Virus record (IMG/VR): IMGVR_UViG_3300017917_003612
Location: 1-64,000 of that record
Direction: 5' to 3' (one strand)
From: a virus
Length of the DNA: 64,000 bases
Shown here: piece after piece, positions 17,646 through 55,707 of the stretch
Layout: the number at the start of each line of letters is the position of its first letter
Numbering within the stretch: position 1 is the first letter of the stretch
Notes under the pieces: model-generated
Told to the model about the DNA's origin: nothing
Database searches by the model: none
Seen by the model: only the letters and a program-made list of their open reading frames with translations
Made by a program: the position numbers and the translations under genes

Positions 17646-17659
17646 TAGATATTTATAAG

Positions 17660-18810: not shown

Positions 18811-19134
18811 TTAGGCAGGTTGCTTGTTGCTAGCGCGGGCCTTGATAGCGTCCATGCTGGGCTTGGCACTTTTGACTTTGACAACCGGTGCTGCATTGTA
18901 CTTGGCGTCGGCTGCATCAATAGCAGCAGCAAACTCGGGATTCTTGTACAGATCCGTTGTTTTAAGATGCGTGACCAGCTCGCCCTTGGTCATTGCACGA
19001 GGCAGTTCGACCAAGTTGATGTCGGTGTCAGTCTTGGCAAGGATCTTGACACGAGTCATGTCGCCAGCGAAACGAACCTTGTACTGGCCTTTAGTTTTAG
19101 AAACACCACCTACCATAAAAGTTTTGTCAGTCAT
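18811..19134 (-). CDS. Hypothetical phage protein
   Basis: Own promoter (TTGACC-N17-TACAAT at 19221-19193), RBS and terminator. Confidence 0.7.
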   Translation of the reverse strand: MTDKTFMVGGVSKTKGQYKVRFAGDMTRVKILAKTDTDINLVELPRAMTKGELVTHLKTTDLYKNPEFAAAIDAADAKYNAAPVVKVKSAKPSMDAIKARASNKQPA

Positions 19135-25447: not shown

Positions 25448-26944
25448 TTAAATGTTAAGTTTTTTAAGTTTGTATGTTGAAATTATTTTTCGTCTAAATT
25501 GTTCAACTTTGTTACGCTCACCTTGGGTGTAAGGTGTTGCAAAACCTTTATCTAATGTTCGTCCTTCATATATATAATCATCTAATGTAAGATTGCCTGG
25601 ATTGTTGCAAGGAAACTTTTTTGGAATAAACTCGTTGACCAATCTATCTACCTGTTCATAATTAAGAAAATCATTCTCCCAATTTACCAAAGTTGGTTTG
25701 TATAATTTGTTAGAACGTCTGTAACCATATTTTGTATAATCTCTACCAAAATCAGACATGGAATTGTCTAATCCGTGTGAAATGTCGTTTTGATCAGGAA
25801 TGCTCAGAGAAAACCAAACATGGTGTTGATCACTCCAATTTTGCTTTAACCATGTCAGACTTTGATTGATAGTTTGCAAAGTTTCATAAGGTAGCCCTGC
25901 AATCATTGAAATAGTTCCTCTGTATCTGCGGTTGTTTGTTTTGAGAAAATATTCTTTTATTTCAATCAAACCTTCTTTTAATTTTTGGCTGTCTATGCCT
26001 TTGCCTATAGTTTTTGCACTTTGGTGATTAAAACTTTCAATGCCATAATAGTGCCCTCCAAAATTCATTCTAGCTAGATGAATTCTATCTTCGGGACGAT
26101 TTAATAATAAATCGGCTCGTATAAAACCGGAAAAAAAAGGTTGAAAAGACAATTGTTCAACAACATCACCATACTTTGCTATTTTTTCAAAACTATCATT
26201 AAAAGTTTCATCCACTACATAGTAGTTTTGTATACCAAATTTGTCATAGTTGTAATTTATGCTTCGTTTAAAGTCTTCTACGTCTTGTGTGTAATCTCCT
26301 TGTACGCCCAAAACTGGATAATAACAAAATTTACATTTAAAAATACAACCTCTACTTAGCTCAATGTGTCCCCATTCCTCAGGTAAAATAAAATCCCTAT
26401 CTTCAAAATCAATTGACATTTTGGGCTGAGGAAATGATTTGTCTGTTACATTGGCCGAAATAACCTTTTTACCAATATGTTTTAAATCAAACTGTAATTT
26501 GTGTTTTGACCCATTGCCTGTGACAAACTTTAACAAGTGAACAATAGCCGACTCGCCGTACCCGGTAATATGATAATCTATATTTTTTGAATTTACATTG
26601 GGATAAGTTCCTCCTCCCCAAATAGTAACAACGTTTGGCCACTTGGATTTGAACCAATTTAAAAAGTGATCTATATTCAAAGGCCATGATTGAAATATAC
26701 AACTGAATGCAATAAATTTAGTTTTATTACTAACTCGTTGTAGACTTATTTCTTTTAGTTCTTCGTAAGTAAATTCTGCCGCAAAATCAACTACTTCAAC
26801 ATCCCAATCCAATGATCGTAAATGATTGGCAATACGATGACCGCCGGCTCGTCGTCGGTGGTATTTGTTGTCTTGATCCGGTGTGCTAGGATAAGAATTG
26901 TGTTGATAGACCTGGAATATAATTCCATGGAAAGAGTTTGACAT
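25448..26944 (-). CDS. Radical SAM protein with N-terminal B12-binding-like domain
   Basis: IANHLR...VEVVD, WGG, GYGE, SRGCIFKCKFC, DETFN, GIES, GLPYET. Confidence 0.85.
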   Translation of the reverse strand: MSNSFHGIIFQVYQHNSYPSTPDQDNKYHRRRAGGHRIANHLRSLDWDVEVVDFAAEFTYEELKEISLQRVSNKTKFIAFSCIFQSWPLNIDHFLNWFKSKWPNVVTIWGGGTYPNVNSKNIDYHITGYGESAIVHLLKFVTGNGSKHKLQFDLKHIGKKVISANVTDKSFPQPKMSIDFEDRDFILPEEWGHIELSRGCIFKCKFCYYPVLGVQGDYTQDVEDFKRSINYNYDKFGIQNYYVVDETFNDSFEKIAKYGDVVEQLSFQPFFSGFIRADLLLNRPEDRIHLARMNFGGHYYGIESFNHQSAKTIGKGIDSQKLKEGLIEIKEYFLKTNNRRYRGTISMIAGLPYETLQTINQSLTWLKQNWSDQHHVWFSLSIPDQNDISHGLDNSMSDFGRDYTKYGYRRSNKLYKPTLVNWENDFLNYEQVDRLVNEFIPKKFPCNNPGNLTLDDYIYEGRTLDKGFATPYTQGERNKVEQFRRKIISTYKLKKLNI

Positions 26945-26956
26945 TTTTTTTAGATT

Positions 26957-27322
26957 TTATACTGCAATTTTGCGCTGAGATCCGCGTCGCATCTCACCGC
27001 GCATGATTGTTGTTGCTACCAATATACCTTCACTTTTTATAAAAGGCACAGTTACATCGGTTTCAAGATCAACCACTTGAATACTACTACCATCGGCCAA
27101 GTCTAGTAGAACATTTTTCTTTTTTAAAAGCAGCTTGGAGAAAAAATTTGCAACTTCTTGTAAACTTATAATTGGCGTATTTCTAGGATTAGAAATTTGA
27201 TCAACAAAATGTGTAGTAATTTTTAAAGGTATACCTTCGGGCCGAAATCTACTGTTTAACGCATCACTATAATGACGAGCCAATTGAGTATTGTTTTCCA
27301 CAATAAAATTACCGGCTCGCAT
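26957..27322 (-). CDS. Putative capsid-targeted protein (MRAGNFIVE)
   Basis: N-terminal motif like the 29-37 kb array; THF.D.I..PRN domain. Confidence 0.55.
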   Translation of the reverse strand: MRAGNFIVENNTQLARHYSDALNSRFRPEGIPLKITTHFVDQISNPRNTPIISLQEVANFFSKLLLKKKNVLLDLADGSSIQVVDLETDVTVPFIKSEGILVATTIMRGEMRRGSQRKIAV

Positions 27323-27325
27323 TTC

Positions 27326-29320
27326 TTATGTTTTAATAATAAAGTAAACTGATAGATACGGAGGCATGTTGGCATCAGTTCCTGAAGAACCGGTTGTACT
27401 AATACCTACGCTAATACCGGTGGTCGCGGTTGATGTAGCCAGTCCGGATGTTCCTGTGCTTCTTGCGCCACTAAAATCAGCACCAGCAAATGTAGTTCCA
27501 GTTTGGTGACTGTGCCCTGGATCTGTTACAGTTGCAGTGTGCGTGTGACTGACCACAACAGCATCTTTGCTACCACCAGTAGCACCTAATGCATATAATC
27601 CGCCAGCGCCTACTGGTAATCTGTTGGTATAATTAGGCAAATTAAATGTACTTGTGTTATCACCGACACCAAATGTAGTTCCAATTACGGCAAATAACGC
27701 AGCGTATGTGGTACGACTGACTGCGGTTCCATTACATAACAAATAACCTGTTGGCGCACTTAAAGTTGGCCACATCATCAAACTGCCAGTTGGTATACTA
27801 TTGTTTTGAACAAATGCAGTGGTTGCCACTGCTGTATTAGAAGTTCCTGCTGGTAAAGTTGGTGTAACAATAGTGCCACCCACATGCAAATTACCACCAA
27901 CACCTGCACCGCCTGCAATTGTCAATGCACCTGTTGTTGTAGAAGTGGCAGAGGTTGCAGCAGCAATTGAACTGTTGCCACCCAGTAACAAGTTGGCGGC
28001 TATTATTGCGTTTCCAACAATGCTAGCATTACCACCAATGTCCGCAGAGGTTCCTACACTTAAACTACCAGACAATGACGAAGATGCGGCATGAATTGTT
28101 CTAAATCGCATTCCGGTGCTACCAATATTTGAACTAATATTGGCAGTAGGAATAATGTCTGCACCAAGATAAATTTGTGCAATGTTGCTGTTGGTAGCAA
28201 AAATGTTTGCTGCTGTAACATTGCCTACCAAAAGATTTTCCGAAAATATATTGCTCCAACGATTAGAAGTATTGCCTAATGTATAGCTTACATTGGCAAT
28301 AGGAGTTATATTGCCTGAAAAATTAGCTACACCGGTTACTGATCCAGACAATATGTCCACATAATTTTTAGTAGCCAGAGCAAGTGCAGGAGATGATGCA
28401 ATTGGATTTGCATATGCTTCTGGTAACCCAGTTTGAAAATTTCCCCTCAAGAACGGAGTTTGTACACCGCCTGTTCGTAGACTCAAAACAAAATCACGGT
28501 TGTTGGTTTGATTTCGTAGCGTAACAACACCGCTGCTAACTGAACCCACAAAATCACTGGCTGCACCAAATGTCAATCCTGAATCATTTGTCAAAGACAA
28601 GGAACCATTTAAAGTGCCCGAAACGTCATTGCGTAGGAAATTTGATCCGGCTATAGCTACGCCACTGACATATAAACTATTGGATACTTCTGAGTTTCCC
28701 CAAAAAGCCTGCCCTAAGGTACTGTTAAGATTTAGGCCTTTTCTAATGGTTGCAAAACCCGGAACGTCCGACACAAACGGACTATCTTTGCTCCATATGC
28801 CTACCAAAATATCATCTATAAAAAATTTAATAACAACAAATGTTGTACTAGGTGGAGCATCTGTTACTGTGTCTGGAATAGCGCCCGAATTACCGGTGGC
28901 TGTTCTGCTTAAAGGCCCAATCAATCTCCATGTAGTGCCAGTATAAATTTTTAATTGACCGTTTACTGTATCATACCACTGTTCGCCTGTGTAAGCGTTT
29001 GTAGGCGTACTAGCACTGAGAGTCATACCTGCTACAGTTTTCCAAATAGCATTGGCCGTGCCCTTAGTAGACGCGATGTTTACATTCAACAGTTTTGTAG
29101 TGCTGTTAAACCATAATTGACCAGGCAGCGGAGCAGTAGGCGCAGTAGCAAGGGCGAAATTTTCCATCAATCTGACCACATTTTGATTGATGAATAATCC
29201 GTAACCTTTATAGTTCTTGCCAACCAATGTCAGACTCGAGTTTGCACTGTCAGTGGTGTTATCTAGTAATCCACCGGTGATTAGCTCTGTTCCGTTGCTT
29301 AATGTAATATTATATGCCAT
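27326..29320 (-). CDS. Tail fibre protein with tail-collar domain
   Basis: G/S/T/N-rich body; PTGSLMMW...APTGYLLCNG.AVSRTTYAALFAVIG; NMPPY...FIIK end. Confidence 0.9.
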   Translation of the reverse strand: MAYNITLSNGTELITGGLLDNTTDSANSSLTLVGKNYKGYGLFINQNVVRLMENFALATAPTAPLPGQLWFNSTTKLLNVNIASTKGTANAIWKTVAGMTLSASTPTNAYTGEQWYDTVNGQLKIYTGTTWRLIGPLSRTATGNSGAIPDTVTDAPPSTTFVVIKFFIDDILVGIWSKDSPFVSDVPGFATIRKGLNLNSTLGQAFWGNSEVSNSLYVSGVAIAGSNFLRNDVSGTLNGSLSLTNDSGLTFGAASDFVGSVSSGVVTLRNQTNNRDFVLSLRTGGVQTPFLRGNFQTGLPEAYANPIASSPALALATKNYVDILSGSVTGVANFSGNITPIANVSYTLGNTSNRWSNIFSENLLVGNVTAANIFATNSNIAQIYLGADIIPTANISSNIGSTGMRFRTIHAASSSLSGSLSVGTSADIGGNASIVGNAIIAANLLLGGNSSIAAATSATSTTTGALTIAGGAGVGGNLHVGGTIVTPTLPAGTSNTAVATTAFVQNNSIPTGSLMMWPTLSAPTGYLLCNGTAVSRTTYAALFAVIGTTFGVGDNTSTFNLPNYTNRLPVGAGGLYALGATGGSKDAVVVSHTHTATVTDPGHSHQTGTTFAGADFSGARSTGTSGLATSTATTGISVGISTTGSSGTDANMPPYLSVYFIIKT

Positions 29321-29371
29321 TTTTTATTCTCACTACCCTTATTTATGCTGTTTTTACGGGTCTTGGCTATG

Positions 29372-30388
29372 TTATTTTTTGCGCCCACTTTTCATATTTG
29401 CACACCAGTGGTACATCTTACCTTTTTCGCCACCTGACCGTTTGGCTCGGGCTCTCAAACTGCTCACGCTACCTGCACAACTGGCACCAGCACGTTTTAC
29501 ACGACCCGGACGACTCTTTCCTTTTACTCGACCGTCAGCAAAATTTTCTGTTACAGGTTGATCTAAAAATTGTTGTACTGCTTGTAGATGATCACTGCCG
29601 GCCACATACACACCCTGCTTTCTTGTGGCTAAAAACTTGTCGCGTAGATCATTTACAGACTTTGCTACACGGCCTGCACGATATGGATATTCTTCCCAGT
29701 TGTTGGGAAACATTAATTGCTCGCCCAATGTAAAAAACTTTTTAACATTACGTTCTGTAGCAGGCGCTTGACTCATAGCAACAAAATCATATGGACCTTC
29801 ACTGACAGATTGTAAAAACTTCGCCAAAGTTTCAGCATCGAACTGTCGGTCTGGGAAATAGTTGGTGCTAGGCTGTGTGCTTAAAATTCTATCAAAAATT
29901 GTAGAATCAGGGTCAGACCCAATCTTGCCTTCCACGGTGTCGTTTTCTTTTATATTGCTAAACAACACATACAGAAACGGGGCAGGATATCCTTTGATAG
30001 CAGGTGATAGCAAATCATCGTCCCAACTACCTTCATAATCGTCGATAATACCTTTGGTAAGTTTTTGGTCCATACCGTTGCCTTCGTACCAGGCACCGTG
30101 ACGTTCGGCAATGGCTCGTACTCGTTCAGCGTCCGAGTCTGACAGTTGTAACCGCTTGCCGTGTTGTTGACCCACAATTGCCACATCGTTGCCTATGTAG
30201 ATCACATCACTGTGTTTGGCTTCTGTAACACTTTCACCCCCGCCACCATCGCCACCGCTGCTGTCGCCAGACTCGCCACCGTAGGCACCGCTGCCATAAT
30301 AACCGTAGCCAGGATACCAGTAACCGCCAAAATATCTATTTTTGCGTTTTTTCTTTTTGCGTTCGGTTACAAACTCTGCGGCTCTCAT
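29372..30388 (-). CDS. Modular putative internal head protein (MRAAEFVTE) with TraB/TIKI-like central module
   Basis: Internal VTE junctions; IVGQQH, WYEG, LRD, VAGSDHL. Confidence 0.55.
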   Translation of the reverse strand: MRAAEFVTERKKKKRKNRYFGGYWYPGYGYYGSGAYGGESGDSSGGDGGGGESVTEAKHSDVIYIGNDVAIVGQQHGKRLQLSDSDAERVRAIAERHGAWYEGNGMDQKLTKGIIDDYEGSWDDDLLSPAIKGYPAPFLYVLFSNIKENDTVEGKIGSDPDSTIFDRILSTQPSTNYFPDRQFDAETLAKFLQSVSEGPYDFVAMSQAPATERNVKKFFTLGEQLMFPNNWEEYPYRAGRVAKSVNDLRDKFLATRKQGVYVAGSDHLQAVQQFLDQPVTENFADGRVKGKSRPGRVKRAGASCAGSVSSLRARAKRSGGEKGKMYHWCANMKSGRKK

Positions 30389-30410
30389 TACATTCTCACT
30401 TGCATATAAA

Positions 30411-31328
30411 CTATGTTACTTCTTGCTCTTGAGGTTTTTTGAATACACTATATATTTTTTGTATTCCAATTCCTTTTATTCCATTTGCATGTAATACATT
30501 TGCTACAAATGTTCCACAATTTTCAGCTCCTACTGAGTTAGTTGTAGGAACTGATACTGGTTTTGATAATGACACAATTTTTATGTTTTGTTTTGGAAAC
30601 TCTGGGTCATCTGTAACTGCGTTGGTGACATATACATCATTGCCTTTATGCCCACTCATTTGTATTTGTTTTCCGTCTTGAGTTATAAATCCAACATGGT
30701 CATAACTCCATCCTTTAGGTGTTTTATTACTGCGGGCAAAGAATATTTTGTCTGACAAATAGTTGCCAATTTCTTCCATTATTTTTTGTGGATTCAATTG
30801 ATGCATTAGATTTCCCGCACCGGTTGGCACTGGTCCCCCGGACCCAACAAATCCCCCCCGCACCGGTACACTTGAACTACCCCGGGCTGCTGGAGGAGAA
30901 ATTTTAGCTACATCAGACGACGAAGCAAACACCACAGGTAATTTTGCTGTTTTCCATAACGGGTTATCTCTATCCATTCTTTTTTGTAATAAACCTAACG
31001 CAGAAATTCTATGAGCACCATCATCAAGTTTTCCGTCTACAGCTACAATAGGTGGCAAAGTTTTTAATGACTCAGGATTGTCCTTTAAAAACTTTGCATA
31101 TTCTACCGCTTTGGGAGTCACATTCCAACTAAAATCTTTTTTATCGTAATCTCTAATTACATCTTTGTGATATGGTATTCCCTGTATACTTTTATGAATT
31201 TGTTTTAAAGTTAAATTTTGTTGATTTAGATTAGCATCAGGATTTAATTGGGCAGCTTTACCAGAACTTGGCCCGGGTTGTGGTACTGATAAATCGTCAG
31301 CCTCTAGTATAAATTCGTATGCTCTCAT
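30411..31328 (-). CDS. Modular putative internal head protein (MRAYEFILE): ParB/Srx-like plus permuted papain-like modules
   Basis: LPPIV...DGAHR; HVGF...NCGTFV. Confidence 0.55.
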   Translation of the reverse strand: MRAYEFILEADDLSVPQPGPSSGKAAQLNPDANLNQQNLTLKQIHKSIQGIPYHKDVIRDYDKKDFSWNVTPKAVEYAKFLKDNPESLKTLPPIVAVDGKLDDGAHRISALGLLQKRMDRDNPLWKTAKLPVVFASSSDVAKISPPAARGSSSVPVRGGFVGSGGPVPTGAGNLMHQLNPQKIMEEIGNYLSDKIFFARSNKTPKGWSYDHVGFITQDGKQIQMSGHKGNDVYVTNAVTDDPEFPKQNIKIVSLSKPVSVPTTNSVGAENCGTFVANVLHANGIKGIGIQKIYSVFKKPQEQEVT

Positions 31329-32797
31329 AGATTCCTTTCCCAAATCACAAAGGGATCATTTACTACTATTGTGCCGTCGGGTCTGGCCATATAATTGCCA
31401 CTATGCAAGTCAACTGTAAAATTGTGCCGACGAGCAAATCTTTCAACTTCATACACAGTTTTTAATAAACCATCAGCTCGTTCAGGTCCGCCTAACAGAT
31501 CAATAACTTCCTTTATATCTTCAAAGTACTGTGGATTGTAATCTGGTGCATAATAATCTTCTGCACTGGCAAATTCTGCATAGGCTTTAATTTTCTTGTA
31601 TGCTGATTCAAAATTACCTCGACCTATTTGTTTAGTGACCTGATCAATTTGTCCAACCAAGGTTCCAACTGTTTTAGGTAATTCTTGTAGTGTTTCCATT
31701 CGGGCTTGAATATAGTTTTTACCTTGAAATTTAAAACTTTCAAATGCACTAAAACGAGGCAAGTGCGGATTGTCTTTGTTCTTGTTGCAGTAGTCGATCC
31801 AGTTGATAAACATACGCTGGTCAGGGCTGAATCCTTCTACACCTTTACGATATCCAAACACAATATAAACTTGTCCATTGGGTTCAAGATATGCTTGTTT
31901 GTCTATTCCGCCGCCCAAGTATTTGTAACCTTTTTTGGCTAGAGCTTGGCTGATACCAACATGTATTGAGCCAGCCATTTCGTCAAGTGCTTCTTCAAAT
32001 TGTGCAGAGTATCCAACATTGAACTGTGGTTTAGCTCCAGGAAAATTGGGCTGATTGACGCCGGCACTGAATCCTTTTCGTTGATATTGTGCCCCAACTC
32101 CTGTTACACCAAAATCCTTTTGTCCGCTAGCACTCAATGAAATAGAACTGTCTTTGTCAACTGGTATATTGTAAGATCCTGATACAGATCCTCGGTCACC
32201 TATGTTTACACTGGCAGGACCATATCCAAGATTGATACCTCGTTGAGCTTCATAATCTCTCATGCCTCCGGGCATATCAGCTGATATGCCTAAATTCAGC
32301 CCTGTGTTTAAATTGCTGTACTGAGCACGTTGTAATCTTTTTTCTGGATCCACGCTGGTTTGTGCTGTCCAATTGACTGGTTTTTCTTTTGGCATCGGCA
32401 AGTCAGGCAATTCGTCATCGTTTATAACCTGTCTGCTGACCATTTCTTCTAGGTGTGCAATTGCTTCGTCAGCTCTAATTGCTTTTGCGTAATCTTCTGG
32501 GCTGTCTATATCGTGCAAGCTAAAGCCCAGGCGCTTGAGCAACGGAATCATTTTGTGTTCTTCTTCTTCACTGCCAAACGCAAACACAGTGTGCGGCACA
32601 CCTTTGTTAAATGTTCTAGGATCTGCATCGTCTAAGTCACTCACTGCCATGCCCAGCTTGTACCAGTCGTACACATCGCTCACATTGACCAAGGTAGTAC
32701 CTTTGGGAAAACTCAACGGTGTGCCCGGATCACTTTTGAGGTACTGATCTTCATCGTAATCGGGGTTATCTTCTAGTATAAATTCTCTTGCTCTCAT
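31325..32797 (-). CDS. Modular putative internal head protein (MRAREFILE) with C-terminal kinase-like domain
   Basis: YLGGG, HLPR, ME.L, DLHSGNYM, V.NDP. Confidence 0.6.
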   Translation of the reverse strand: MRAREFILEDNPDYDEDQYLKSDPGTPLSFPKGTTLVNVSDVYDWYKLGMAVSDLDDADPRTFNKGVPHTVFAFGSEEEEHKMIPLLKRLGFSLHDIDSPEDYAKAIRADEAIAHLEEMVSRQVINDDELPDLPMPKEKPVNWTAQTSVDPEKRLQRAQYSNLNTGLNLGISADMPGGMRDYEAQRGINLGYGPASVNIGDRGSVSGSYNIPVDKDSSISLSASGQKDFGVTGVGAQYQRKGFSAGVNQPNFPGAKPQFNVGYSAQFEEALDEMAGSIHVGISQALAKKGYKYLGGGIDKQAYLEPNGQVYIVFGYRKGVEGFSPDQRMFINWIDYCNKNKDNPHLPRFSAFESFKFQGKNYIQARMETLQELPKTVGTLVGQIDQVTKQIGRGNFESAYKKIKAYAEFASAEDYYAPDYNPQYFEDIKEVIDLLGGPERADGLLKTVYEVERFARRHNFTVDLHSGNYMARPDGTIVVNDPFVIWERNL

Positions 32798-35295
32798 CGT
32801 GCTGGTACCACCATAAATTCACCACTACCTAGTAGGCCTTGACCGCGCAGCCAATTTGCAGCATATTGATTGGCTTCGCCTTGATTGCTACGATGAACAA
32901 AACTATAAACTTCACGGTCGTTTTGATCTAACACTAGCCAACGGGTATTTCCGGGTGGCAGGCTTTCTGTACCACGGGCAGCAGAACTCGCAGGATCTGC
33001 TTCTATCCTGTTTATTGTCCATCCGGCACGCTCCAGTCGATTTCTCACAGCAGCCATGGCAGCATCAGCATTTGCTGCCGGAACCGTCATAGTATTGTTT
33101 CTCACTTCATCACCATAGGTCACCGTATAATCAACTCTATATTCTGTTTGCTCTCGTTGTTGAACTTCACCTTGATTGCGTGGCAAATCGTCTCTTGCTC
33201 GCATGAGTGGTCTAACATATACGGGATCGTCATATCCTGTCTGCTGTTGCCATCTTGCTGCGTGTCTTTCAGCATCTGCTACTGCGTTTCCGATACCGCT
33301 GATTACAGACACAACCTCATCGGTGTTTCTACTCACTACTTCCCAGTGCCCGGTAAATTCTTGATCACGGCTGGGTGTTTGCTGAACAGGTGGTTCACGC
33401 CAAATTGGCTGGGGCTCGCCCAATCTCGCTCTCAAGTTATATGCAGTTTCCTGACCGTCATATGTGCGATCGTGTGCGGCCACAATATCATCGAAGGCTG
33501 CATTGGCAAACTGATCAGGGAATCTTTGTACCGCAATGGTTCGAGCCTGGAATTCACTCATGGCTCGCACCCACACACCTCGTGGACTGTTTTCTACTTT
33601 GACATAGTAGAACTTTGGACTCATTTGATTCATGTCATCCGTGGTAGCGGCTCGTAAGGGTTGTACTTTCCATCCGTGTTCTTGTGCCCATTCTTCCATA
33701 CTACTACTACCAATGTTTAATCGCCATTTTTTAATTGCTTCCACAACAGCGTCCAACTCGGTCTTACCTAACACTTCCGTACCTTGGCTTTGATAAGGAC
33801 TGGTACGATCGCCTGTGACCCGCCATACCAACAATATATCCTTGGCACCCTGTGTGAGTTTATCAACTTTTCTCTTGCCCTGTATCTGTCTTACAAATGC
33901 TTTCAAGGCACTTTGTGGTAATTCACCGGCGGCATATTTTGCAAAGTATTGAATGGTATCGTCTTCCTTGCCTTGTGTGAGTGTTTTGTACAATTTCTTG
34001 TAGTATTCTTGTTTGAACTCCGCAGGCTTGGTAGCAACATCTAATGCCACTACTGCTCGCAACATTGTGTTTTTAACTGCAGAGAGATCATCACCCAGCC
34101 AGTCACCACCCGGACCACGAAACTCTATCCAGTCGCCTCTATTGTTGATACTACTATATTTTTGTGTTTGACCTGTGTGTAAAACTTTGCTGGCTATGTC
34201 ACTTAGTCCACTCTGAAACTGACGCATCATTTCGGTCACACGCTCAGGTTCGGTGCGGGCAATGATTTTAATACTTTTCAAAATACTCTTACAATAGGTA
34301 TTACCTTCACGACCAAATTGTTCTAGGATATAGTTATCGCCCAGGAACATGGCCAGTTTAACAAAGTCTAGATTTTGTTGACCGGGTACACTCACATTCA
34401 TGTGCAGGCCAGTGCTGTCGTTAGTGTAAGCACCCACTCTACCGGCCCATTTAGCCACTTTGTCGATGTCCGACAACATTTCGTCCACAGTTAGTGGAGG
34501 GCTTACAAACTCTAGTCCACCATCACCTGGGTCGCCATGCAAGCTTGAATCCGGCTCTACCACATAGTGTCCAGGTCGTCTAGTGGCACCGTGATAACTG
34601 CTACTGGCATTTACCGGACGACCTATGGCTTGACTGAAGTCATCGGCAACATCATTGATACTGACACCGCTACCGCCGTAGTAATCATCTGGTTGGGTCC
34701 AGTATGGCCATTCTAGGCTGTGTTCATTGGCGAAATCACTCATCATGGTGATGCCATTATCTTCTAGCCATTCTTCAAACTTTGAGTCAAGATTTTCGTT
34801 GTATTCATCTCTCAATTGATCGCGTATGTTGTCTTCGTTTTCGTCAATGAAATTTTGTAAAGCTGCAATATACTCTTCCTCAGTTTCGTAATCGTCTCTG
34901 TCGACATTGTCGCCTGCTATTTCTGTTACACGATCTTGTCCTGCCTCCGAAGCCATGTATTGTTCTTGATCTTCGTCGGTCCACGCAAGGAAGTTCTCAT
35001 TAAGTTCATCAATGGCTCTTTGTATGCTACGAGTGCTATTGCTAACTTCGCCGCCGCGGAAAAAGCTCATTATGTCATTGGTCCAGCCTCGGCCAGTAGG
35101 AAAACTTTCATCAGCATCGTAATCCGGTTCTGATTCAAATTCATTTTCTTCTTCACCCTGGGCATTGGGCACAATCAGTTCAAATTCCATGCCAACTCTG
35201 GCGTCAATGTTCTTGGCCATTTTGCTCAAGTTGGTTGGGCTCATTTTGAGCTCGAACAATTCATCTTCGGTTAGTTCAAATTCGCGAAATCTCAT
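32794..35295 (-). CDS. Putative amidoligase (COOH-NH2 ligase type 2) domain protein (MRFREFELTE)
   Basis: GMEFE, DSSL, GLEFVSP, TNDSTGLHMNVS, KY.SIN, IEFR. Confidence 0.75.
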   Translation of the reverse strand: MRFREFELTEDELFELKMSPTNLSKMAKNIDARVGMEFELIVPNAQGEEENEFESEPDYDADESFPTGRGWTNDIMSFFRGGEVSNSTRSIQRAIDELNENFLAWTDEDQEQYMASEAGQDRVTEIAGDNVDRDDYETEEEYIAALQNFIDENEDNIRDQLRDEYNENLDSKFEEWLEDNGITMMSDFANEHSLEWPYWTQPDDYYGGSGVSINDVADDFSQAIGRPVNASSSYHGATRRPGHYVVEPDSSLHGDPGDGGLEFVSPPLTVDEMLSDIDKVAKWAGRVGAYTNDSTGLHMNVSVPGQQNLDFVKLAMFLGDNYILEQFGREGNTYCKSILKSIKIIARTEPERVTEMMRQFQSGLSDIASKVLHTGQTQKYSSINNRGDWIEFRGPGGDWLGDDLSAVKNTMLRAVVALDVATKPAEFKQEYYKKLYKTLTQGKEDDTIQYFAKYAAGELPQSALKAFVRQIQGKRKVDKLTQGAKDILLVWRVTGDRTSPYQSQGTEVLGKTELDAVVEAIKKWRLNIGSSSMEEWAQEHGWKVQPLRAATTDDMNQMSPKFYYVKVENSPRGVWVRAMSEFQARTIAVQRFPDQFANAAFDDIVAAHDRTYDGQETAYNLRARLGEPQPIWREPPVQQTPSRDQEFTGHWEVVSRNTDEVVSVISGIGNAVADAERHAARWQQQTGYDDPVYVRPLMRARDDLPRNQGEVQQREQTEYRVDYTVTYGDEVRNNTMTVPAANADAAMAAVRNRLERAGWTINRIEADPASSAARGTESLPPGNTRWLVLDQNDREVYSFVHRSNQGEANQYAANWLRGQGLLGSGEFMVVPAR

Positions 35296-35681
35296 TCTAT
35301 TATTTCCGGATTGGCCTTGCCATACAATTTCATAAGGTAGCCTGCTACTGCATCGGCCTCTTGTTCAACGGGCGAGCCAGGATAGCTTTGGTCACCGTTT
35401 ACTCTACCATCTTCGTACTGCTTTCTGTGAGTAAGTTCGTGAGCTACAGTACGCATTATATCAATTAGATTTCTGTTGCCGGTATAAATCCACATCGTGT
35501 CTTCGGCATCGTCGTAATAACCGGTTCTGTGTTGGTCTGGACCTTCCTTGGCATCTTGGAAACGAATCTTAGGCAATGCTTCTTGAATGTCCAATCGATC
35601 AACACACCATGCCACAAAGTCGCGCAGTTGTGCTTCGTGATCACGAAAGGTGCTTTCTGTAATAAATTCTTGTGCTCTCAT
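35292..35681 (-). CDS. Zincin-like metallopeptidase domain protein (MRAQEFITE)
   Basis: RTVAHELTH..Q and E.EA. Confidence 0.7.
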   Translation of the reverse strand: MRAQEFITESTFRDHEAQLRDFVAWCVDRLDIQEALPKIRFQDAKEGPDQHRTGYYDDAEDTMWIYTGNRNLIDIMRTVAHELTHRKQYEDGRVNGDQSYPGSPVEQEADAVAGYLMKLYGKANPEIIE

Positions 35682-36205
35682 TTTTTTCTAGATCTCGCTT
35701 CTCGTTCGGCCCTCATTAGATTAGGCACATAATCAAATTCCGAACCCAACATGGGATTGTTCAGCTGATATGCTGCGGCTAGATCGTCAGGCACTCCATG
35801 CATGCCACCAGTATAACCGCCGCCCGCGCCTTTCAAAGACTGTGGTGCGATTTTAGGTGTTGTGGCAGCGGGAGTTTTTAGTGCATCTGCGCTTTGACTT
35901 CTATATTCAGATGGTGTCAATTTACGACCTGCTCTATCGTCTGCTCTAATCCAGTCGCCTATACCAGCAAAATTTTGGTTGAGGCGAGCTTCACGCTCGG
36001 CACTTCTTTGTTGCGCGATTGCTCTATCAATTGCATCGTTTTCGGCCTTTATAGCGGCTGTAATTCTTTTATGTTTCTCACTGCCAGGTTCACCAATGGT
36101 GGCTCTTTTAACATCCCTTTTCGGCTGCTGCTGAGACAGTTTATCCCAATCTAAGCCTAAAAAGCTATTTTCACCAGCTTCGGTTATAAATTCTCTAGCT
36201 CGCAT
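35678..36205 (-). CDS. Putative internal head protein (MRAREFITE)
   Basis: Shared N-terminal motif; start moved to 36205. Confidence 0.6.
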   Translation of the reverse strand: MRAREFITEAGENSFLGLDWDKLSQQQPKRDVKRATIGEPGSEKHKRITAAIKAENDAIDRAIAQQRSAEREARLNQNFAGIGDWIRADDRAGRKLTPSEYRSQSADALKTPAATTPKIAPQSLKGAGGGYTGGMHGVPDDLAAAYQLNNPMLGSEFDYVPNLMRAEREARSRKK

Positions 36206-36845
36206 CTTGTTTATCCTGTGAGCCAGCAATCATTTTACCATAGTCCCGGCTCTGTATATTTTGCGGTGTGTGCTCGCGCTGTCCTTTGACAATTTCAAAT
36301 GCTCTACGCAGACCTTTGGCTACCACGTCCAATCCATCTTCATCTGCTTGATATTTGATACCAATACCACCACTTTGTTCCCATTCTGTCAGCACACTGT
36401 TTCTATCATCAACTAAAATATTGGGTGTTCCATCTGCTTGTTTGGCATACTTGCCCTTGCGGCCGGTAATACGGATCACTCTAGGCTGCGGGTTTAAGTT
36501 TTCTGCTATCCAGGCTCGCTTCATGGCTTCTGAGTTTTGATTATCACCGCGTAAGGGACTTGAACAGATATTGTAGTATCCAAACACTTCCACAACCATA
36601 GCCACCAATCTATCTGCTGACGGAAATTTTGGTAATCTGTAAAAGAAATCAGTGCCACGCATCTGTGCAATTACAGGCTCGCGCAGTTCTGCAGGAATAC
36701 TGCGGTAGTCTGCTCGGCCACTTTTAACGTCAGCGGGCACTCCGGCCAATTTGGCATATTCTGAGAAGAAATCTGCTAGTACGCCGTCCATGTCTAGGAA
36801 TATTTCAGGACGGCCAGGGGGTTTTTCTAGTTCGTATAAGCGCAT
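36195..36845 (-). CDS. HAD-family 5'(3')-deoxyribonucleotidase-like protein (MRLYELE)
   Basis: FLDMDGVLADF, CSSP, K..W, ILVDD; TAAATA 4 nt upstream. Confidence 0.85.
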   Translation of the reverse strand: MRLYELEKPPGRPEIFLDMDGVLADFFSEYAKLAGVPADVKSGRADYRSIPAELREPVIAQMRGTDFFYRLPKFPSADRLVAMVVEVFGYYNICSSPLRGDNQNSEAMKRAWIAENLNPQPRVIRITGRKGKYAKQADGTPNILVDDRNSVLTEWEQSGGIGIKYQADEDGLDVVAKGLRRAFEIVKGQREHTPQNIQSRDYGKMIAGSQDKQDAS

Positions 36846-36859
36846 TTTGTATTTATTGA

Positions 36860-37739: not shown

Positions 37740-37782
37740 AAAAAACTCCTACTACAAGATATTTAACTTTTGTAGTAGGAGT
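37740..37782 (-). terminator. Intrinsic terminator with TAAATA in the loop
   Basis: ACTCCTACTACAA...TTGTAGTAGGAGT plus U-tract. Confidence 0.75.
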
Positions 37783-37799: not shown

Positions 37800-38357
37800 T
37801 TACTGTTTGCTCAAATCTTCAAATGCTTTGTCTGATCTTTCCACAGCATTTTTGCTAGCACGGAGTTGATCTTTACGTTTCATGATAGCGTTAGCTTCAC
37901 CTGTTGGTAATGCCAACAGTACATAAGACCTAAACCTGCCATTTTCTGCTACACGTACAGTTTCTACTATCTCGGCACCGGATATGTCAACTCGTCGACA
38001 CATACTACGAATGGCCACTTCACTGTTTTCTGCGCTAGCAGATTCTGTGTCATTCATGTACATTTTGCTAGATTTATCTACCTCACCACCTGCTGCCATA
38101 CATATCGAGCTAAGAGCAATAGTCTTGGCCTTCATGTCTGCCATTGCAAAATCTCTGCTTACAGCCGAGCCATTAGCATAAACAGCATTCTTGCTTTCGG
38201 GCAGTTTGCTCATCCATTTAGGAGCTCGATCAATTGCACGTTCAGCGGCCTTGTCCTGGCGTTCGCGCTCGGCATCTGCTCGTTTGTCATAAACATTGGT
38301 TGTGCCGCATGCAACAAGAACCGTTGCAACAGTCAACATCAAAAACAATTTTTTCAT
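37800..38357 (-). CDS. Lipoprotein (LPP20-like)
   Basis: MKKLF...LVAC lipobox; APKW, A.G.A.S motifs. Confidence 0.65.
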   Translation of the reverse strand: MKKLFLMLTVATVLVACGTTNVYDKRADAERERQDKAAERAIDRAPKWMSKLPESKNAVYANGSAVSRDFAMADMKAKTIALSSICMAAGGEVDKSSKMYMNDTESASAENSEVAIRSMCRRVDISGAEIVETVRVAENGRFRSYVLLALPTGEANAIMKRKDQLRASKNAVERSDKAFEDLSKQ

Positions 38358-38365
38358 ATCTAACC

Positions 38366-38485
38366 TCATTTTGATTGAATCCAATCTCCAACACGACTCA
38401 GATCTCGCCCGGCACCTGAAATCGCGCCACCTAAAGTACCACAACCCGTTAGGGTAAACAACAGAAAAACAAGTAAAGTTTTCAT
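38366..38485 (-). CDS. Entericidin-like small lipoprotein, 39 aa
   Basis: MKTLLVFLLFTLTGCGTLGGAISGAGRDLSRVGDWIQSK; translated by hand. Confidence 0.55.
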   Translation of the reverse strand: MKTLLVFLLFTLTGCGTLGGAISGAGRDLSRVGDWIQSK

Positions 38486-38506
38486 AATTCAATTATAATA
38501 AAATGA

Positions 38507-39112
38507 TCAAAATTTGTCAACCACTGTCCACTCATTTCTTATTACACATCCCATTATTTCCCATTGCATTAGAGTGTTGTTTTTTGGATTTACATCCGAT
38601 TCTAAAAAATATCTACATATGGTTCCTTTGTGTTCAAACGGTGCAGGTTCTGCAGGATGAGGCTTTAGTTCACTTACTTGAAAAGTATCATTCTTTTTGA
38701 GTCCTTTGCGCAATTGCGGCGTTTGAAAATCGTTACAATACAGGGTCTGGCTAGACTGCACTGCTATGCCTTGTATTTTTTCTAAAATTTTAGTGCGTCC
38801 AACTTGCATGGCCTGACTGCAGATTTGATCAGTACTGTCCGTAATAAACCCTTGACTTTCACCTCTGGCGTCATACCATTTGTTATTGATGTTGGCTTTA
38901 AACAAAATTGTACAGATCTGCTGATTGTTTTGTGTTTTGACAAATTTTTGATAATCAGCTATTTCGCGAATTTCCGTTTTAGTCTGATTGGTTAAAACAG
39001 ATTCTTGATAACATTCTGCTACAGCCAAACCAGGAAATCCAAAAATTAGTGCGAATTTAAACGCTGCTCTCGTTCTAGCAAGTATTTTTGCTCTGAATCT
39101 GTGATTGGACAT
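38507..39112 (-). CDS. Exported Cys-containing protein
   Basis: Signal-like LAVA-EC. Confidence 0.6.
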   Translation of the reverse strand: MSNHRFRAKILARTRAAFKFALIFGFPGLAVAECYQESVLTNQTKTEIREIADYQKFVKTQNNQQICTILFKANINNKWYDARGESQGFITDSTDQICSQAMQVGRTKILEKIQGIAVQSSQTLYCNDFQTPQLRKGLKKNDTFQVSELKPHPAEPAPFEHKGTICRYFLESDVNPKNNTLMQWEIMGCVIRNEWTVVDKF

Positions 39113-39423
39113 TGTTGCCTTATCTCCCTTTGTGCATGTTTGATCATAGCTTCATGTTTGAAATTCAATGTATCTGTGCTGTCTTGTGTAGTTCCATTGT
39201 AGGCATTTGAAAGAATACCAACTACACTGGTCATTTGAAAAGCCACTTTTAAGCGATCCCATTGACTGTATTTCTGGCTTTCCAAAAATTTATACTGTTC
39301 TTCTCGACGACTACAATCTACTTTAAATGTGCTCAGTTCAGTAAAATTCATCCTGGAAGGTGCAGTTGTGCATGCCCATTGCCCTAGACACCCAATAATT
39401 ATTATCAGTTTTTTCATTTGCAA
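39046..39423 (-). CDS. Putative lipoprotein
   Basis: MKKLIIII...WAC. Confidence 0.55.
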   Translation of the reverse strand: MQMKKLIIIIGCLGQWACTTAPSRMNFTELSTFKVDCSRREEQYKFLESQKYSQWDRLKVAFQMTSVVGILSNAYNGTTQDSTDTLNFKHEAMIKHAQREIRQQCPITDSEQKYLLEREQRLNSH

Positions 39424-39626
39424 TCTTTTTGAAGTTTCCAGTATGCTCTACGTAAATTTCTACGAGTCTCTATGTCATTGTCAGACAAAAGAGACTCTGA
39501 TCGAGCTATTAAAGATTCTTGATGTTTTTTATTATAACAATCTGAAAACCATAAATTGGTTTCCGGTGTGTGTCTAGTGGCACACGCCGATACAAATATT
39601 GTTAAAACTAAAACAAATCTTTTCAT
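39414..39626 (-). CDS. Small lipoprotein
   Basis: VSAC lipobox. Confidence 0.6.
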   Translation of the reverse strand: MKRFVLVLTIFVSACATRHTPETNLWFSDCYNKKHQESLIARSESLLSDNDIETRRNLRRAYWKLQKDCK

Positions 39627-47333: not shown

Positions 47334-47773
47334 GGTTTGTACAACCAACCCAAATTCTCAATTTGATGTATCCAGGTGAAAATAGGTGTAGTAAACGGTA
47401 ATTCCCATCTACCGTTCCAGCCCAAATACGTTGCTGATTTAATAACTGGATTCTTGTCTGGGTAATCTTGTGGGTAGTCCGGATAAAAGTATCCTGCCCA
47501 TTTGAATCTATCCAGTGTAATTGATTCAAATGTAACTGATTGAATTTCTATTGCCATATCTAAATTTTTATCTAAAATACATTCGTTATAATTTTTATTA
47601 TTAAAATTTACCCAAAATTTGTGTTCGCCTGGGGTCAAACAAAGCGACAATCTAAGTTTAATTGAATTGCTAACCGGAACAGTATTGATTAAATTTTCGT
47701 CAACACCATAAGAAATTTCTGGCACTGTTTTCCACCAGTGCGGCGTTATCTCAATATCAAACACTGTATCCAT
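47330..47773 (-). CDS. Hypothetical protein coupled to the radical SAM gene
   Basis: Overlapping start; YLGWNG.W...F..PIF.W. Confidence 0.6.
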   Translation of the reverse strand: MDTVFDIEITPHWWKTVPEISYGVDENLINTVPVSNSIKLRLSLCLTPGEHKFWVNFNNKNYNECILDKNLDMAIEIQSVTFESITLDRFKWAGYFYPDYPQDYPDKNPVIKSATYLGWNGRWELPFTTPIFTWIHQIENLGWLYKP

Positions 47774-49055
47774 AATTTTTAAAAAAGTTACTATATTCTG
47801 GATAGAAATCTAATGCATTCAATTTGAACAATTTGTCCCAACGCATCAGCCAAAAAATCAATTCTTTTCTCAATTTATCGATATTATTAGATTCTGGTTG
47901 TTCTAACATTGTAATTACTGTGTCACATTCTTTAACCAATTGTTGTTCAAGCCTCGAAACATCGCGTCCAATTGTTAAAGTTTTCATGTCAGACGTACTT
48001 TGTAAAATTTCCTCTTTTAATTTGATATATTTTTTTACCAAACTCATTCTGATATCCATTGGTAACACTTTTATTGCCAAGTATTCCGGATCACTTAGAG
48101 GAATGCTTTGGATGCTTATTTTGTTTCTGAGTGCGAATAGAATATATTGATCATAATTGTTTACGTTTAACAGTTGCGGTACACTACGCAACACAATGTT
48201 AAATGTAGTTGTTCTGTATTTTAACAAAGTGTCAATATTTTGTAATGTTTTCTTTGTGTCTACTCCCTGTCTAATATAATGATTGTTGTTATATATACTT
48301 TCTAAACTGATTTCAATGTCAACAGATTTGAAAAATTGCATTTTTTTAATCAATTCTTCATCAATGATTGTTCCATTGGAGACAAAACTTAAACTTAAAT
48401 CAGAATAGCCATTGCTTACTAACCAATCAACAAACTCATAAAATCTTTTATTTACTAAAGGCTCACCGCCCATTATGTGTATCCTATGTAATTTAGGAAT
48501 ACTTTGTATATTTTTTAATAATTTTTTATAGAGTATATCAGAATTAGTCCAGTTGTTCTTTTTAGCATATGAGATACCCCATTTTTTGTAACTTTGTGCT
48601 ATTTTACTGCTTGCATCAGGACTGCACATCTTACAGGCCAAATTGCATTCATTTCCAAAATCTATGTGTAAATCAATTGGTAAACAATCTGTTGTACCAA
48701 TCGCTGCAGATTCAGAAAATTTTTTATTCCAGGGGCTCTGTTGAAAACTTTTGTCAAACGCTTGTTTAGTGAAAATCGCCACTTTAAAATTTTCCCGTAT
48801 TCTGCGACTTTCGTGCCCATGTTGCTCTTCTATATAACATCTTTGGCATTCAGGTAATTTCTCGTTGCCTAGAATACGTAATCTAAAATTACGCATGGCA
48901 GCACTGTTATACCATGTAATCAAATTGGTGTTTTGAATATTTTCAACAGGCCCTGTGGGTTTTGATATTTCGCTACAACAAGCACCATATGTTCCGTCCC
49001 AATAAAGATGAGAATTGTACCAAGGCACGGCACAAAATATATCTTTATTTGCCAT
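47757..49055 (-). CDS. Radical SAM protein with N-terminal SPASM/Twitch domain
   Basis: FCAVPW...G.YGACC, C.RC, CNLACKMC, MGGEP, SNGT. Confidence 0.9.
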   Translation of the reverse strand: MANKDIFCAVPWYNSHLYWDGTYGACCSEISKPTGPVENIQNTNLITWYNSAAMRNFRLRILGNEKLPECQRCYIEEQHGHESRRIRENFKVAIFTKQAFDKSFQQSPWNKKFSESAAIGTTDCLPIDLHIDFGNECNLACKMCSPDASSKIAQSYKKWGISYAKKNNWTNSDILYKKLLKNIQSIPKLHRIHIMGGEPLVNKRFYEFVDWLVSNGYSDLSLSFVSNGTIIDEELIKKMQFFKSVDIEISLESIYNNNHYIRQGVDTKKTLQNIDTLLKYRTTTFNIVLRSVPQLLNVNNYDQYILFALRNKISIQSIPLSDPEYLAIKVLPMDIRMSLVKKYIKLKEEILQSTSDMKTLTIGRDVSRLEQQLVKECDTVITMLEQPESNNIDKLRKELIFWLMRWDKLFKLNALDFYPEYSNFFKNYGYSV

Positions 49056-55680: not shown

Positions 55681-55707
55681 TAGATATTTATTTTGAAATT
55701 TTTATTG

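Follow-up and report, generated by a model that had tools for sequence, protein, structure and literature searches.

A T4-like N-terminal leader common to an array of otherwise unrelated, modular proteins in an uncultured jumbo phage

An array of tagged genes on the minus strand

The window analyzed here is the first 64 kb of the linear 78,548-base IMG/VR record IMGVR_UViG_3300017917_003612, whose completeness (22% according to CheckV) indicates that the record is a fragment of a ~350-kb phage; the source is an uncultured T4-related jumbo phage. An array of nine genes was identified in this window, in the minus-strand order H, G, F, E, D, C, B, tail-fibre gene, and A (Table 1), and all of these genes except the tail-fibre gene begin with a short peptide of ~10 amino acids (aa; here called the tag or leader) that is common to otherwise unrelated proteins. 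Genes H to B are consecutive, with overlaps of 4-11 nt or a spacing of 22 nt, and four of their junctions are ATGA overlaps; as claimed by an earlier model-made annotation of the same DNA (the original prediction), these seven genes lie behind a single TAAATA site, the first ATAAATA of Table 1. The tagged methionines of C, G, and H are located 5, 8, and 28 codons inside the longest open reading frame (ORF).

The recurrence of the tag is real and far from chance. All eight N-termini listed in the original prediction were confirmed, each on the minus strand. The motif M[RK]xx[EN][FL]x{1,3}E occurred seven times in the six-frame translation of the 78,548-base contig, each time at the start of an array gene, and MRLYELE of H represents a shorter tag variant that is kept in relatives as MRL[YF]E[LI]E. 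With a position matrix trained exclusively on leaders from other contigs, the six 9-residue leaders took ranks 1-6 among 327 candidate ORF starts, while the 10-residue leader of E and the 7-residue leader of H ranked 8th and 9th. The mature parts of the eight proteins presented no significant similarity to each other (best E-value of 0.068 in a database of the eight sequences), which agrees with the earlier claim that the tagged ORFs are otherwise unrelated. The leaders end in ILE9 (twice), ITE9 (twice), VTE9, IVE9, LTE10, and LYE5, and these ends fit (L/I)-x-E, with Val at P3 as a relaxation.

The same tag was found in relatives. Searches with E and D retrieved 50 related IMG/VR loci (designated L plus a number; larger genomes are designated G), in which 172 ORFs contained a relaxed version of the tag, nearly all at ORF starts, clustered, and on the same strand. 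The consensus of 138 distinct leaders was M-[RK]-[A/I/L]-x-[E/D]-[F/L/I]-[I/L/F/V]-x-E, in which positions 3 (A/I/L) and 7 (I/L/F/V) were strongly biased even though they lie outside the search pattern. Leader codons varied synonymously (AGA/CGA/CGT for Arg, GAA/GAG for Glu, and TTT/TTC for Phe), suggesting that constraint acts on the peptide. DNA encoding MRAxEFIxE was found in at least 120 IMG/VR stretches; among the matches listed, 133 of 145 were at ORF starts, and 70 of the 71 loci with two or more tagged ORFs had all of them on one strand. The complete 355-kb relative G001, which has terminal repeats, contained only eight occurrences of the motif, seven at ORF starts and five of those in consecutive large genes; the tag thus marks a small and specific gene set. 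Homologs of gene A in L003 and L005 start with MRVGEFLNE and MRLTEFLIE, respectively.

The original prediction described an array around a tail fibre. The tail-fibre gene does sit among the tagged genes, and it occupies the same position in L003 and L005, but it is untagged and missing from the arrays of L004, L009, and L013, and it seems to be a syntenic neighbour and not cargo.

Table 1. Features of the array and its upstream flank (window positions; joints are also given by protein and residue).
Feature	Position	Strand	Description
Hairpin	37745-37782	minus	15-bp palindrome, then T-run; likely terminator closing the upstream unit before gene I and the array
ATAAATA, first	36850-36856	minus	Heptamer resembling a T4 late promoter; ends 4 nt before the H start codon, within the 14-nt gap behind untagged gene I
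Gene H, 216 aa	36195-36845	minus	Short leader MRLYELE, 36845-36825 (L-Y-E5 or E7), then 5'(3')-deoxyribonucleotidase
Gene G, 175 aa	35678-36205	minus	Leader MRAREFITE, 36205-36179; then basic protein, pI 9.5
Gene F, 129 aa	35292-35681	minus	Leader MRAQEFITE, 35681-35655; zincin-like HExxH module; C-terminal end ...PEIIE
Gene E, 833 aa	32794-35295	minus	10-residue leader MRFREFELTE, 35295-35266; Amidoligase_2, then C-terminal domains
Gene D, 490 aa	31325-32797	minus	Leader MRAREFILE, 32797-32771; modules D1, D2, D3
Modules of D			D1, alpha/beta, residues 10-118; D2, linker and beta meander; D3, protein-kinase-like, residues 274-490
Possible joint HLEE118	D115-118, Glu at 32446-32444	minus	Weakest of the joints
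Joint ALDE273	D270-273, Glu at 31981-31979	minus	Coincides with post-leader module start in relatives
Gene C, 305 aa	30411-31328	minus	Leader MRAYEFILE, 31328-31302; C1, disordered linker 145-187, C2
Joint KIMEE186	C182-186, Glu at 30773-30771	minus	End of predicted disordered linker (AlphaFold2)
Gene B, 338 aa	29372-30388	minus	Leader MRAAEFVTE, 30388-30362; modules B1, B2, B3
Modules of B			B1, Lys/Arg-rich and Gly/Tyr-rich; B2, acidic, ~225 aa; B3, 57 aa, NFADG..., pI 11.6
Joint ESVTE56	B52-56, Glu at 30223-30221	minus	Coincides with post-leader module start in relatives, alignment three residues off
Joint QPVTE281	B277-281, Glu at 29548-29546	minus	Coincides with post-leader module start in relatives
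ATAAATA, second	29340-29346	minus	19 nt upstream of the tail-fibre start
Tail-fibre gene, 664 aa	27326-29320	minus	No leader; Collar domain PF07484 (E = 2.9e-21); tail-fibre PHROGs
Gene A, 121 aa	26957-27322	minus	Leader MRAGNFIVE, 27322-27296; then basic protein, pI 9.8

In the window, 13 of the 15 ATAAATA heptamers were on the coding strand; since their total was not enriched (15 versus 23 expected), a promoter role of this heptamer is argued by strand and position only. ATAAATA was observed exactly 4 nt before an ATG at three minus-strand places (36850-36856, 17650-17656, and 55685-55691, with starts at 36845, 17645, and 55680); if these heptamers are T4-type late promoters, the transcripts would have little or no leader, or else the actual start codons would be located farther downstream.

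Predicted modules and the joints between them

The predicted cargo of the array comprises kinase-like, amidoligase, nucleotidase, zincin-like, ParB/sulfiredoxin-fold, and permuted papain-like modules as well as very basic peptides, as judged from profile matches and structure models. E matched Amidoligase_2 (PF12224; 38 bits versus a cut-off of 22), and H, which contains the sequence DMDGVLAD, is of the NT5C type (phrog_2643; E = 1.1e-18). D3 matched phrog_15752 (T7 gp0.7 kinase; E = 4.4e-7), and the top Foldseek matches of its AlphaFold2 model all had a protein-kinase-like fold (LicA, APH(2''), FN3K, and WNK1; E-values of 1e-3 to 2e-2). In F, residues H81, E82, H85, and E106 were invariant in 32 homologs, and relatives of F presented weak matches to Peptidase_M78, DUF6782, WLM, and MPTase-PolyVal. 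Searching the sequences of solved structures yielded nothing for either D3 or the F profile, and the fold search with D2 yielded generic beta-sheet or barrel fragments only. AlphaFold2 models suggest a ParB/sulfiredoxin fold for C1 (Foldseek finds Srx/ParB) and a permuted papain-like fold of the YiiX/NlpC-P60 type for C2 (3kw0, Z = 6.5; 2if6 [YiiX], Z = 6.3; 6ky4, Z = 5.9); the fold scores of C2 are middling, yet all top matches are of one kind. B1, B3, G, and A are very basic (pI 9.5-11.6). Pfam searches with single modules (E up to 1) provided nothing useful, and a Pfam census of 148 non-redundant tagged proteins of relatives identified GH19, M23, LysM, GNAT, dCMP deaminase, SOD, ADP-ribosyltransferases (including ART-PolyVal), and ParB_N; the majority of the 148 proteins had no Pfam match.

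Joints were defined by modules that directly follow the leader in one protein and are internal in another, which gave 64 distinct junction contexts. The residue before the module (P1) was Glu in 45 of these contexts (background of 6.3%), and P3 was V, L, I, F, or M in 45 of the 64 (background of 23%); most exceptions were alignments 1-4 residues out of register from such a site. For example (a slash marks the joint), ...DQPVTE/NFADG in B matches a 67-aa ORF of L013 that reads MRAYEFITE/NFADG, and ...EEALDE/MAGSIH in D matches MRAADFTTE/MAGSIH in L004, where D3 stands alone. Conversely, the leader end ...ELTE/DELFELKM of E matches an internal ...EQLDE/DELFELKM in a 1,603-aa protein of L006, and homologs of gene E keep L-x-E/LKM in Atu_ph07, where the gene lies beside the portal gene, and in RsoM2USA. 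In AlphaFold models for which alignments of relatives were used, ALDE273 lies in a low-confidence stretch (residues 259-278) and KIMEE186 at the end of the disordered linker. All five internal sites listed in the original prediction exist; QPVTE, ALDE, and, three residues out of register, ESVTE coincide with module starts, and precise support was not obtained for HLEE.

Comparison with L003, L004, L005, L006, L009, L011, and L013, and with all ORFs of the related loci, indicates that modules are swapped, dropped, and fused exactly at Glu joints, which bears out the module shuffling that had been expected among relatives. F, which stands alone here, is internal or C-terminal in 31 ORFs of related loci, and B3 forms the end of 37 different ORFs. 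D3 is found alone (L004), behind D1 (L003), or behind other modules, and C1 is found alone in L003. L005 contains a fusion of H with F, and in L047 and L041 H is joined to D1 and B3 modules; E occurs inside 1,600-aa chains in L006 and L011, the chains of relatives reaching 1,603-1,622 aa. Only one distant homolog of G was present in the loci (L035). In a collection of 5.8 billion proteins, C2 recurred at 70-92% identity, joined to GNAT, deaminase, GH19, and other domains via QGVAE/, QGLTE/, and QGVTE/ linkers. Neither a megablast search of the array region against 50,697 phage records nor a tblastn search of D1 and C2 against cultured phages gave a match; the sole match of F among cultured phages was in cyanophage S-SRM01, and that of H was in Methylophilales phage Melnitz.

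A proposed capsid-targeting role and its alternatives

The tag resembles the capsid-targeting sequence (CTS) of phage T4, as the original prediction had proposed. T4 ipII and ipIII both begin with MKTYQEFIAE; these first 10 residues are the CTS, in which targeting depends on residues 4 and 7 and processing on residues 8 and 10, and gp21 cuts after L/I-x-E (PMC9026906; the CTS sequence is also given in PMC8442874). The tag and the CTS have E-F-I-x-E in common, with F7, I8, and E10 of T4 corresponding to F6, I7, and E9 here, and the leaders end in a gp21-type (L/I/V)-x-E; Y4 of the T4 CTS has no fixed counterpart in the tag. A protein with modules D2 and D3 in a related locus (L005:12313-13599) starts with MRAYEFLKD, with Asp in place of the final Glu of the tag; an Asp as the final CTS residue of T4 prevents processing but not targeting (PMC9026906). 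CTS-like or tag-like starts were also observed in a 54-aa hypothetical protein encoded by T4 gene 61.1 (MKTFKEFIKE; NC_000866, L220 record, 18966-19130), which has no internal-protein annotation, in a "cytidyltransferase" of S-SRM01 (MKNFHQFITE; L219:8581-9903), and in a P-loop protein of Melnitz whose gene adjoins baseplate genes (MKTFAELQE; L226:8235-8903), the latter two being single tag-like starts.

Peptidase_S77 (the gp21 family; PF03420) was found above the Pfam cut-off in all seven large tag-bearing genomes tested (G001, G002, and G006-G010; 166-525 kb); the S77 protease gene of one relative is located at L054:1441-2079. G001 and G002 contain a T4-like head cluster encoding two core proteins (one small and one acidic), the protease, a gp22-like scaffold, and the major capsid protein, the N-terminal region of which (...YLKE/NATAG) aligns to ...FLVE/NASAG of PA5oct. 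By protease sequence, the nearest cultured phages were Phosso, PA5oct, SCTP-2, and the 121Q/PBECO4 group. PA5oct gp333 (L073:2843-3064), a 73-aa protein that starts with MKINDIITE, is encoded between the portal and protease genes and is annotated as detected in virions by mass spectrometry; its counterparts start with MNIFELFD in G001 (L053:187-423) and MVLTELYQ in G002 (L054:214-432). The cargo tag may derive from, or compete with, the N-terminus of this small conserved core protein. Small cargo modules beginning E/TATAGATSAANV... were also observed (L041:6555-6746 and L054:3153-3440), either as 63-aa ORFs or at the C-terminus of larger cargo proteins. These modules mimic the N-terminus that is predicted for the mature major capsid protein, ...YLKE/NATAGSTAAGNVAT, and could represent a protease exosite, a mimic that binds the shell, or a scar left by recombination.

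We assign a probability of roughly 0.7 to the reading that the tag is a T4-type capsid-targeting propeptide and that the tagged modules are packed, cut by a gp21-family protease, and delivered together with the DNA; this prohead route is the most economical one in view of the resemblance to T4, the preference for gp21-type sites, and the S77 protease that always accompanies the tag in the large genomes tested. Core binding, cleavage, retention in the virion, and ejection are inferred, as are the functions of the modules in the host and the action before phage gene expression that the original prediction proposed. Through the 9-residue N-terminus, the newly synthesized protein would attach to the prohead scaffolding core, and after closure of the shell a gp21-family (Peptidase_S77) protease would cut behind the final Glu of the tag and at [V/L/I/F/M]-x-E sites in the flexible linkers between modules. 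The released kinase-like, amidoligase, nucleotidase, zincin-like, ParB/Srx-fold, and papain-like modules and the basic, DNA-binding-type peptides would stay in the head with the DNA and, at infection, leave it with the DNA, like IPI-III and Alt of T4. Because the address and the joints are short and generic, recombination could insert, delete, or rearrange modules while loading is preserved.

Several observations weigh against this reading. No gp21-type protease gene, gp23-type capsid gene, or other head gene was found on the 78,548-base fragment, so that the link to the prohead rests on relatives; the gp21-like protease gene that the original prediction called for was found in the seven large related genomes but not here. 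The tag is one residue shorter than that of T4 and starts with MR instead of MK. Sites of the form [LIVMF]xE are common (1-3 per 100 residues), and such a site is therefore no proof by itself; HLEE118 is positioned within a predicted helix, ~8 residues ahead of the D2 start defined by homology. With a DNA-pattern scan, 1-5 tag-like starts were identified in each of five cultured relatives (PA5oct, 121Q, Phosso, Atu_ph07, and RsoM2USA), compared to 0-1 in the control, which means that arrays of this kind were not seen in these five isolates, and among the tag-like proteins examined in them only PA5oct gp333 is annotated as a virion protein. The S-SRM01 homolog of F and the Melnitz homolog of H do not carry the tag. 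Finally, F has an invariant HExxH...E and is among the commonest array modules, and could itself be the joint-cutting enzyme.

This last point leads to the alternative that survives best, although we consider it improbable, namely that the tag addresses another destination or partner (tail, baseplate, a membrane site, or a phage-made compartment) and that the joints are cut by another protease, such as F, with the prohead uninvolved. Iyer et al. (2017) reportedly proposed that embedded peptidases process polyvalent proteins, and the array flanks the tail-fibre gene in the window, L003, and L005. However, the arrays of three other loci (L004, L009, and L013) have no tail fibre, EFIxE is common to the tag and the experimentally defined T4 CTS, the signature of hydrophobic P3 and Glu at P1 is that of gp21 and not a known zincin specificity, and the S77 protease co-occurs with the tag in each of the seven large genomes. 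The conserved start could also be an element acting at the nucleic-acid level without a role for the peptide, either as an enhancer of translation initiation or coupling or as a recombination joint for cassette swapping; the tight coupling of the genes, with the four ATGA junctions, and the promotion of cassette exchange by short conserved joints in T4-type phages, as described in PMC2839356, would fit such an element. We regard it as very unlikely, as residues are kept while codons vary synonymously, the same Glu/hydrophobic signature is found at internal joints, where there is no initiation, and the tag is present on just ~7 of several hundred genes per genome. The least credible alternative, a tag that serves as the recognition sequence of a nearby modifying enzyme such as the radical S-adenosylmethionine (SAM)-type protein (CxxxCxxC) encoded 12 nt downstream of gene A, finds homologs of that gene in only 3 of 142 tag-bearing loci, homologs of the other radical-SAM gene of the window in 14, and any long CxxxCxxC ORF in 23, with no radical-SAM gene beside the array in L005 and only a weak opposite-strand homolog in L003 (20.5% identity; E = 1.3e-4). 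Consistent genomic linkage to a radical-SAM maturase, as for the leader of a ribosomally synthesized and post-translationally modified peptide, was thus tested and not found.

The radical-SAM-type protein next to gene A has 498 aa (CIFKCKFC; 25448-26944, minus strand), and the second radical-SAM gene of the window is located at 47757-49055. Further products encoded in the window include a DNA polymerase, an ATP-dependent ligase, PstS, and a UDP-glucose dehydrogenase. The array is immediately preceded by a series of small genes at 37800-39626 (minus strand) whose products have signal peptides of the lipoprotein type (such as ...LVACG and ...VSAC), and a sigma-70-type promoter with a perfect match to TTGACA-17-TATAAT is present at 38520-38492; this unit looks like an early or host-read one.

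Significance and comparison with known systems

The capsid-targeting reading can be extended to a two-part "cargo grammar" of a large clade of uncultured T4-related jumbo phages, in which a 9-residue address is combined with [V/L/I]-x-E punctuation read by the head protease; we give this broader proposal an even chance. If it is true, any protein or chain of modules becomes head cargo, and sequence data would suffice to read out the injected effector repertoire, which comprises hundreds of families, most of them unknown. If the tag works as in T4, it marks the proteins that a large group of uncultured jumbo phages delivers at the first moment of infection, and the tagged proteins, most of them without a Pfam domain, would be prime candidates for new counter-defence and host-takeover functions. 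The protease-punctuated design would explain the rapid shuffling of these arsenals, and it would give a simple means of recognizing virion cargo in metagenomic data and of directing foreign proteins into phage heads; engineered heads of the T4 type may also accept the address.

The closest known system is that of T4 IPI, IPII, IPIII, and Alt, in which, as here, a short N-terminal peptide that ends in hydrophobic-x-Glu is common to otherwise unrelated proteins. An S77 protease and a T4-like cluster of head genes are encoded in the related phage lineage, relatives differ greatly in their gene sets, some of the cargo is very basic, and one tagged protein of a related locus is an ADP-ribosyltransferase, as is Alt. 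The three internal proteins of T4 have been shown to be specific inhibitors of host restriction systems, and the ip genes of T-even phages are variable (PMC12373910). In contrast to T4, whose tag has ten residues and starts with MKT, the tag here has nine residues and starts with MR[A/I/L]; eight tagged genes are present in one array and hundreds of tagged families across relatives, compared to 3-4 in T4. While the T4 internal proteins are single small proteins that are cut once, and Alt is cut at both ends, many of the cargo proteins here are chains of modules of up to ~1,600 aa with protease-type joints. The predicted cargo consists mostly of enzymes, not of small inhibitors as in T4.

A second comparison is with the inner-body and ejection proteins of phiKZ, 201phi2-1, and SPN3US, which are cut by a diverged gp21 homolog; in these phages cleavage after Glu affects many of the head proteins, some of them at more than one site, and a large internal protein cargo is partly ejected. 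However, the motif of phiKZ-type phages is S/A/G-x-E, with a small residue at P3, and their propeptides often exceed 100 residues (PMC9026906 and PMC5694885), whereas P3 is hydrophobic here (45 of the 64 joints) and the propeptide has 9-10 residues, which sets the array apart from the phiKZ type.

The polyvalent proteins of phages and conjugative elements (Iyer et al., 2017), a concept summarised in PMC9503650, likewise contain several unrelated effector-type domains in a single chain, for which transport inside the virion and delivery along with the DNA have been predicted; in the array, B, C, and D have 2-3 modules each, and ART, ParB-like, and zincin-like peptidase domains are common to both systems. 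Matches to PolyVal families in Pfam were few and weak (MPTase-PolyVal in 2 of 32 F modules, best E = 0.015; ART-PolyVal in 1 of 148 tagged proteins, E = 4.4e-6), and no MuF match was listed among the Pfam results of the F modules and the tagged proteins. Loading is predicted here to involve a T4-type N-terminal tag and not a MuF or portal-associated fusion, a prohead-protease motif is present at the joints, and the proteins of the window are smaller (121-833 aa). The T4 CTS, the variable ip genes of T-even phages, and the polyvalent-protein concept are each already established; the literature that we searched contained no description of a T4-type address combined with protease-punctuated chains of several enzymes in uncultured jumbo phages. 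The predicted system is a variant of the T4 internal proteins merged with the polyvalent-protein idea.

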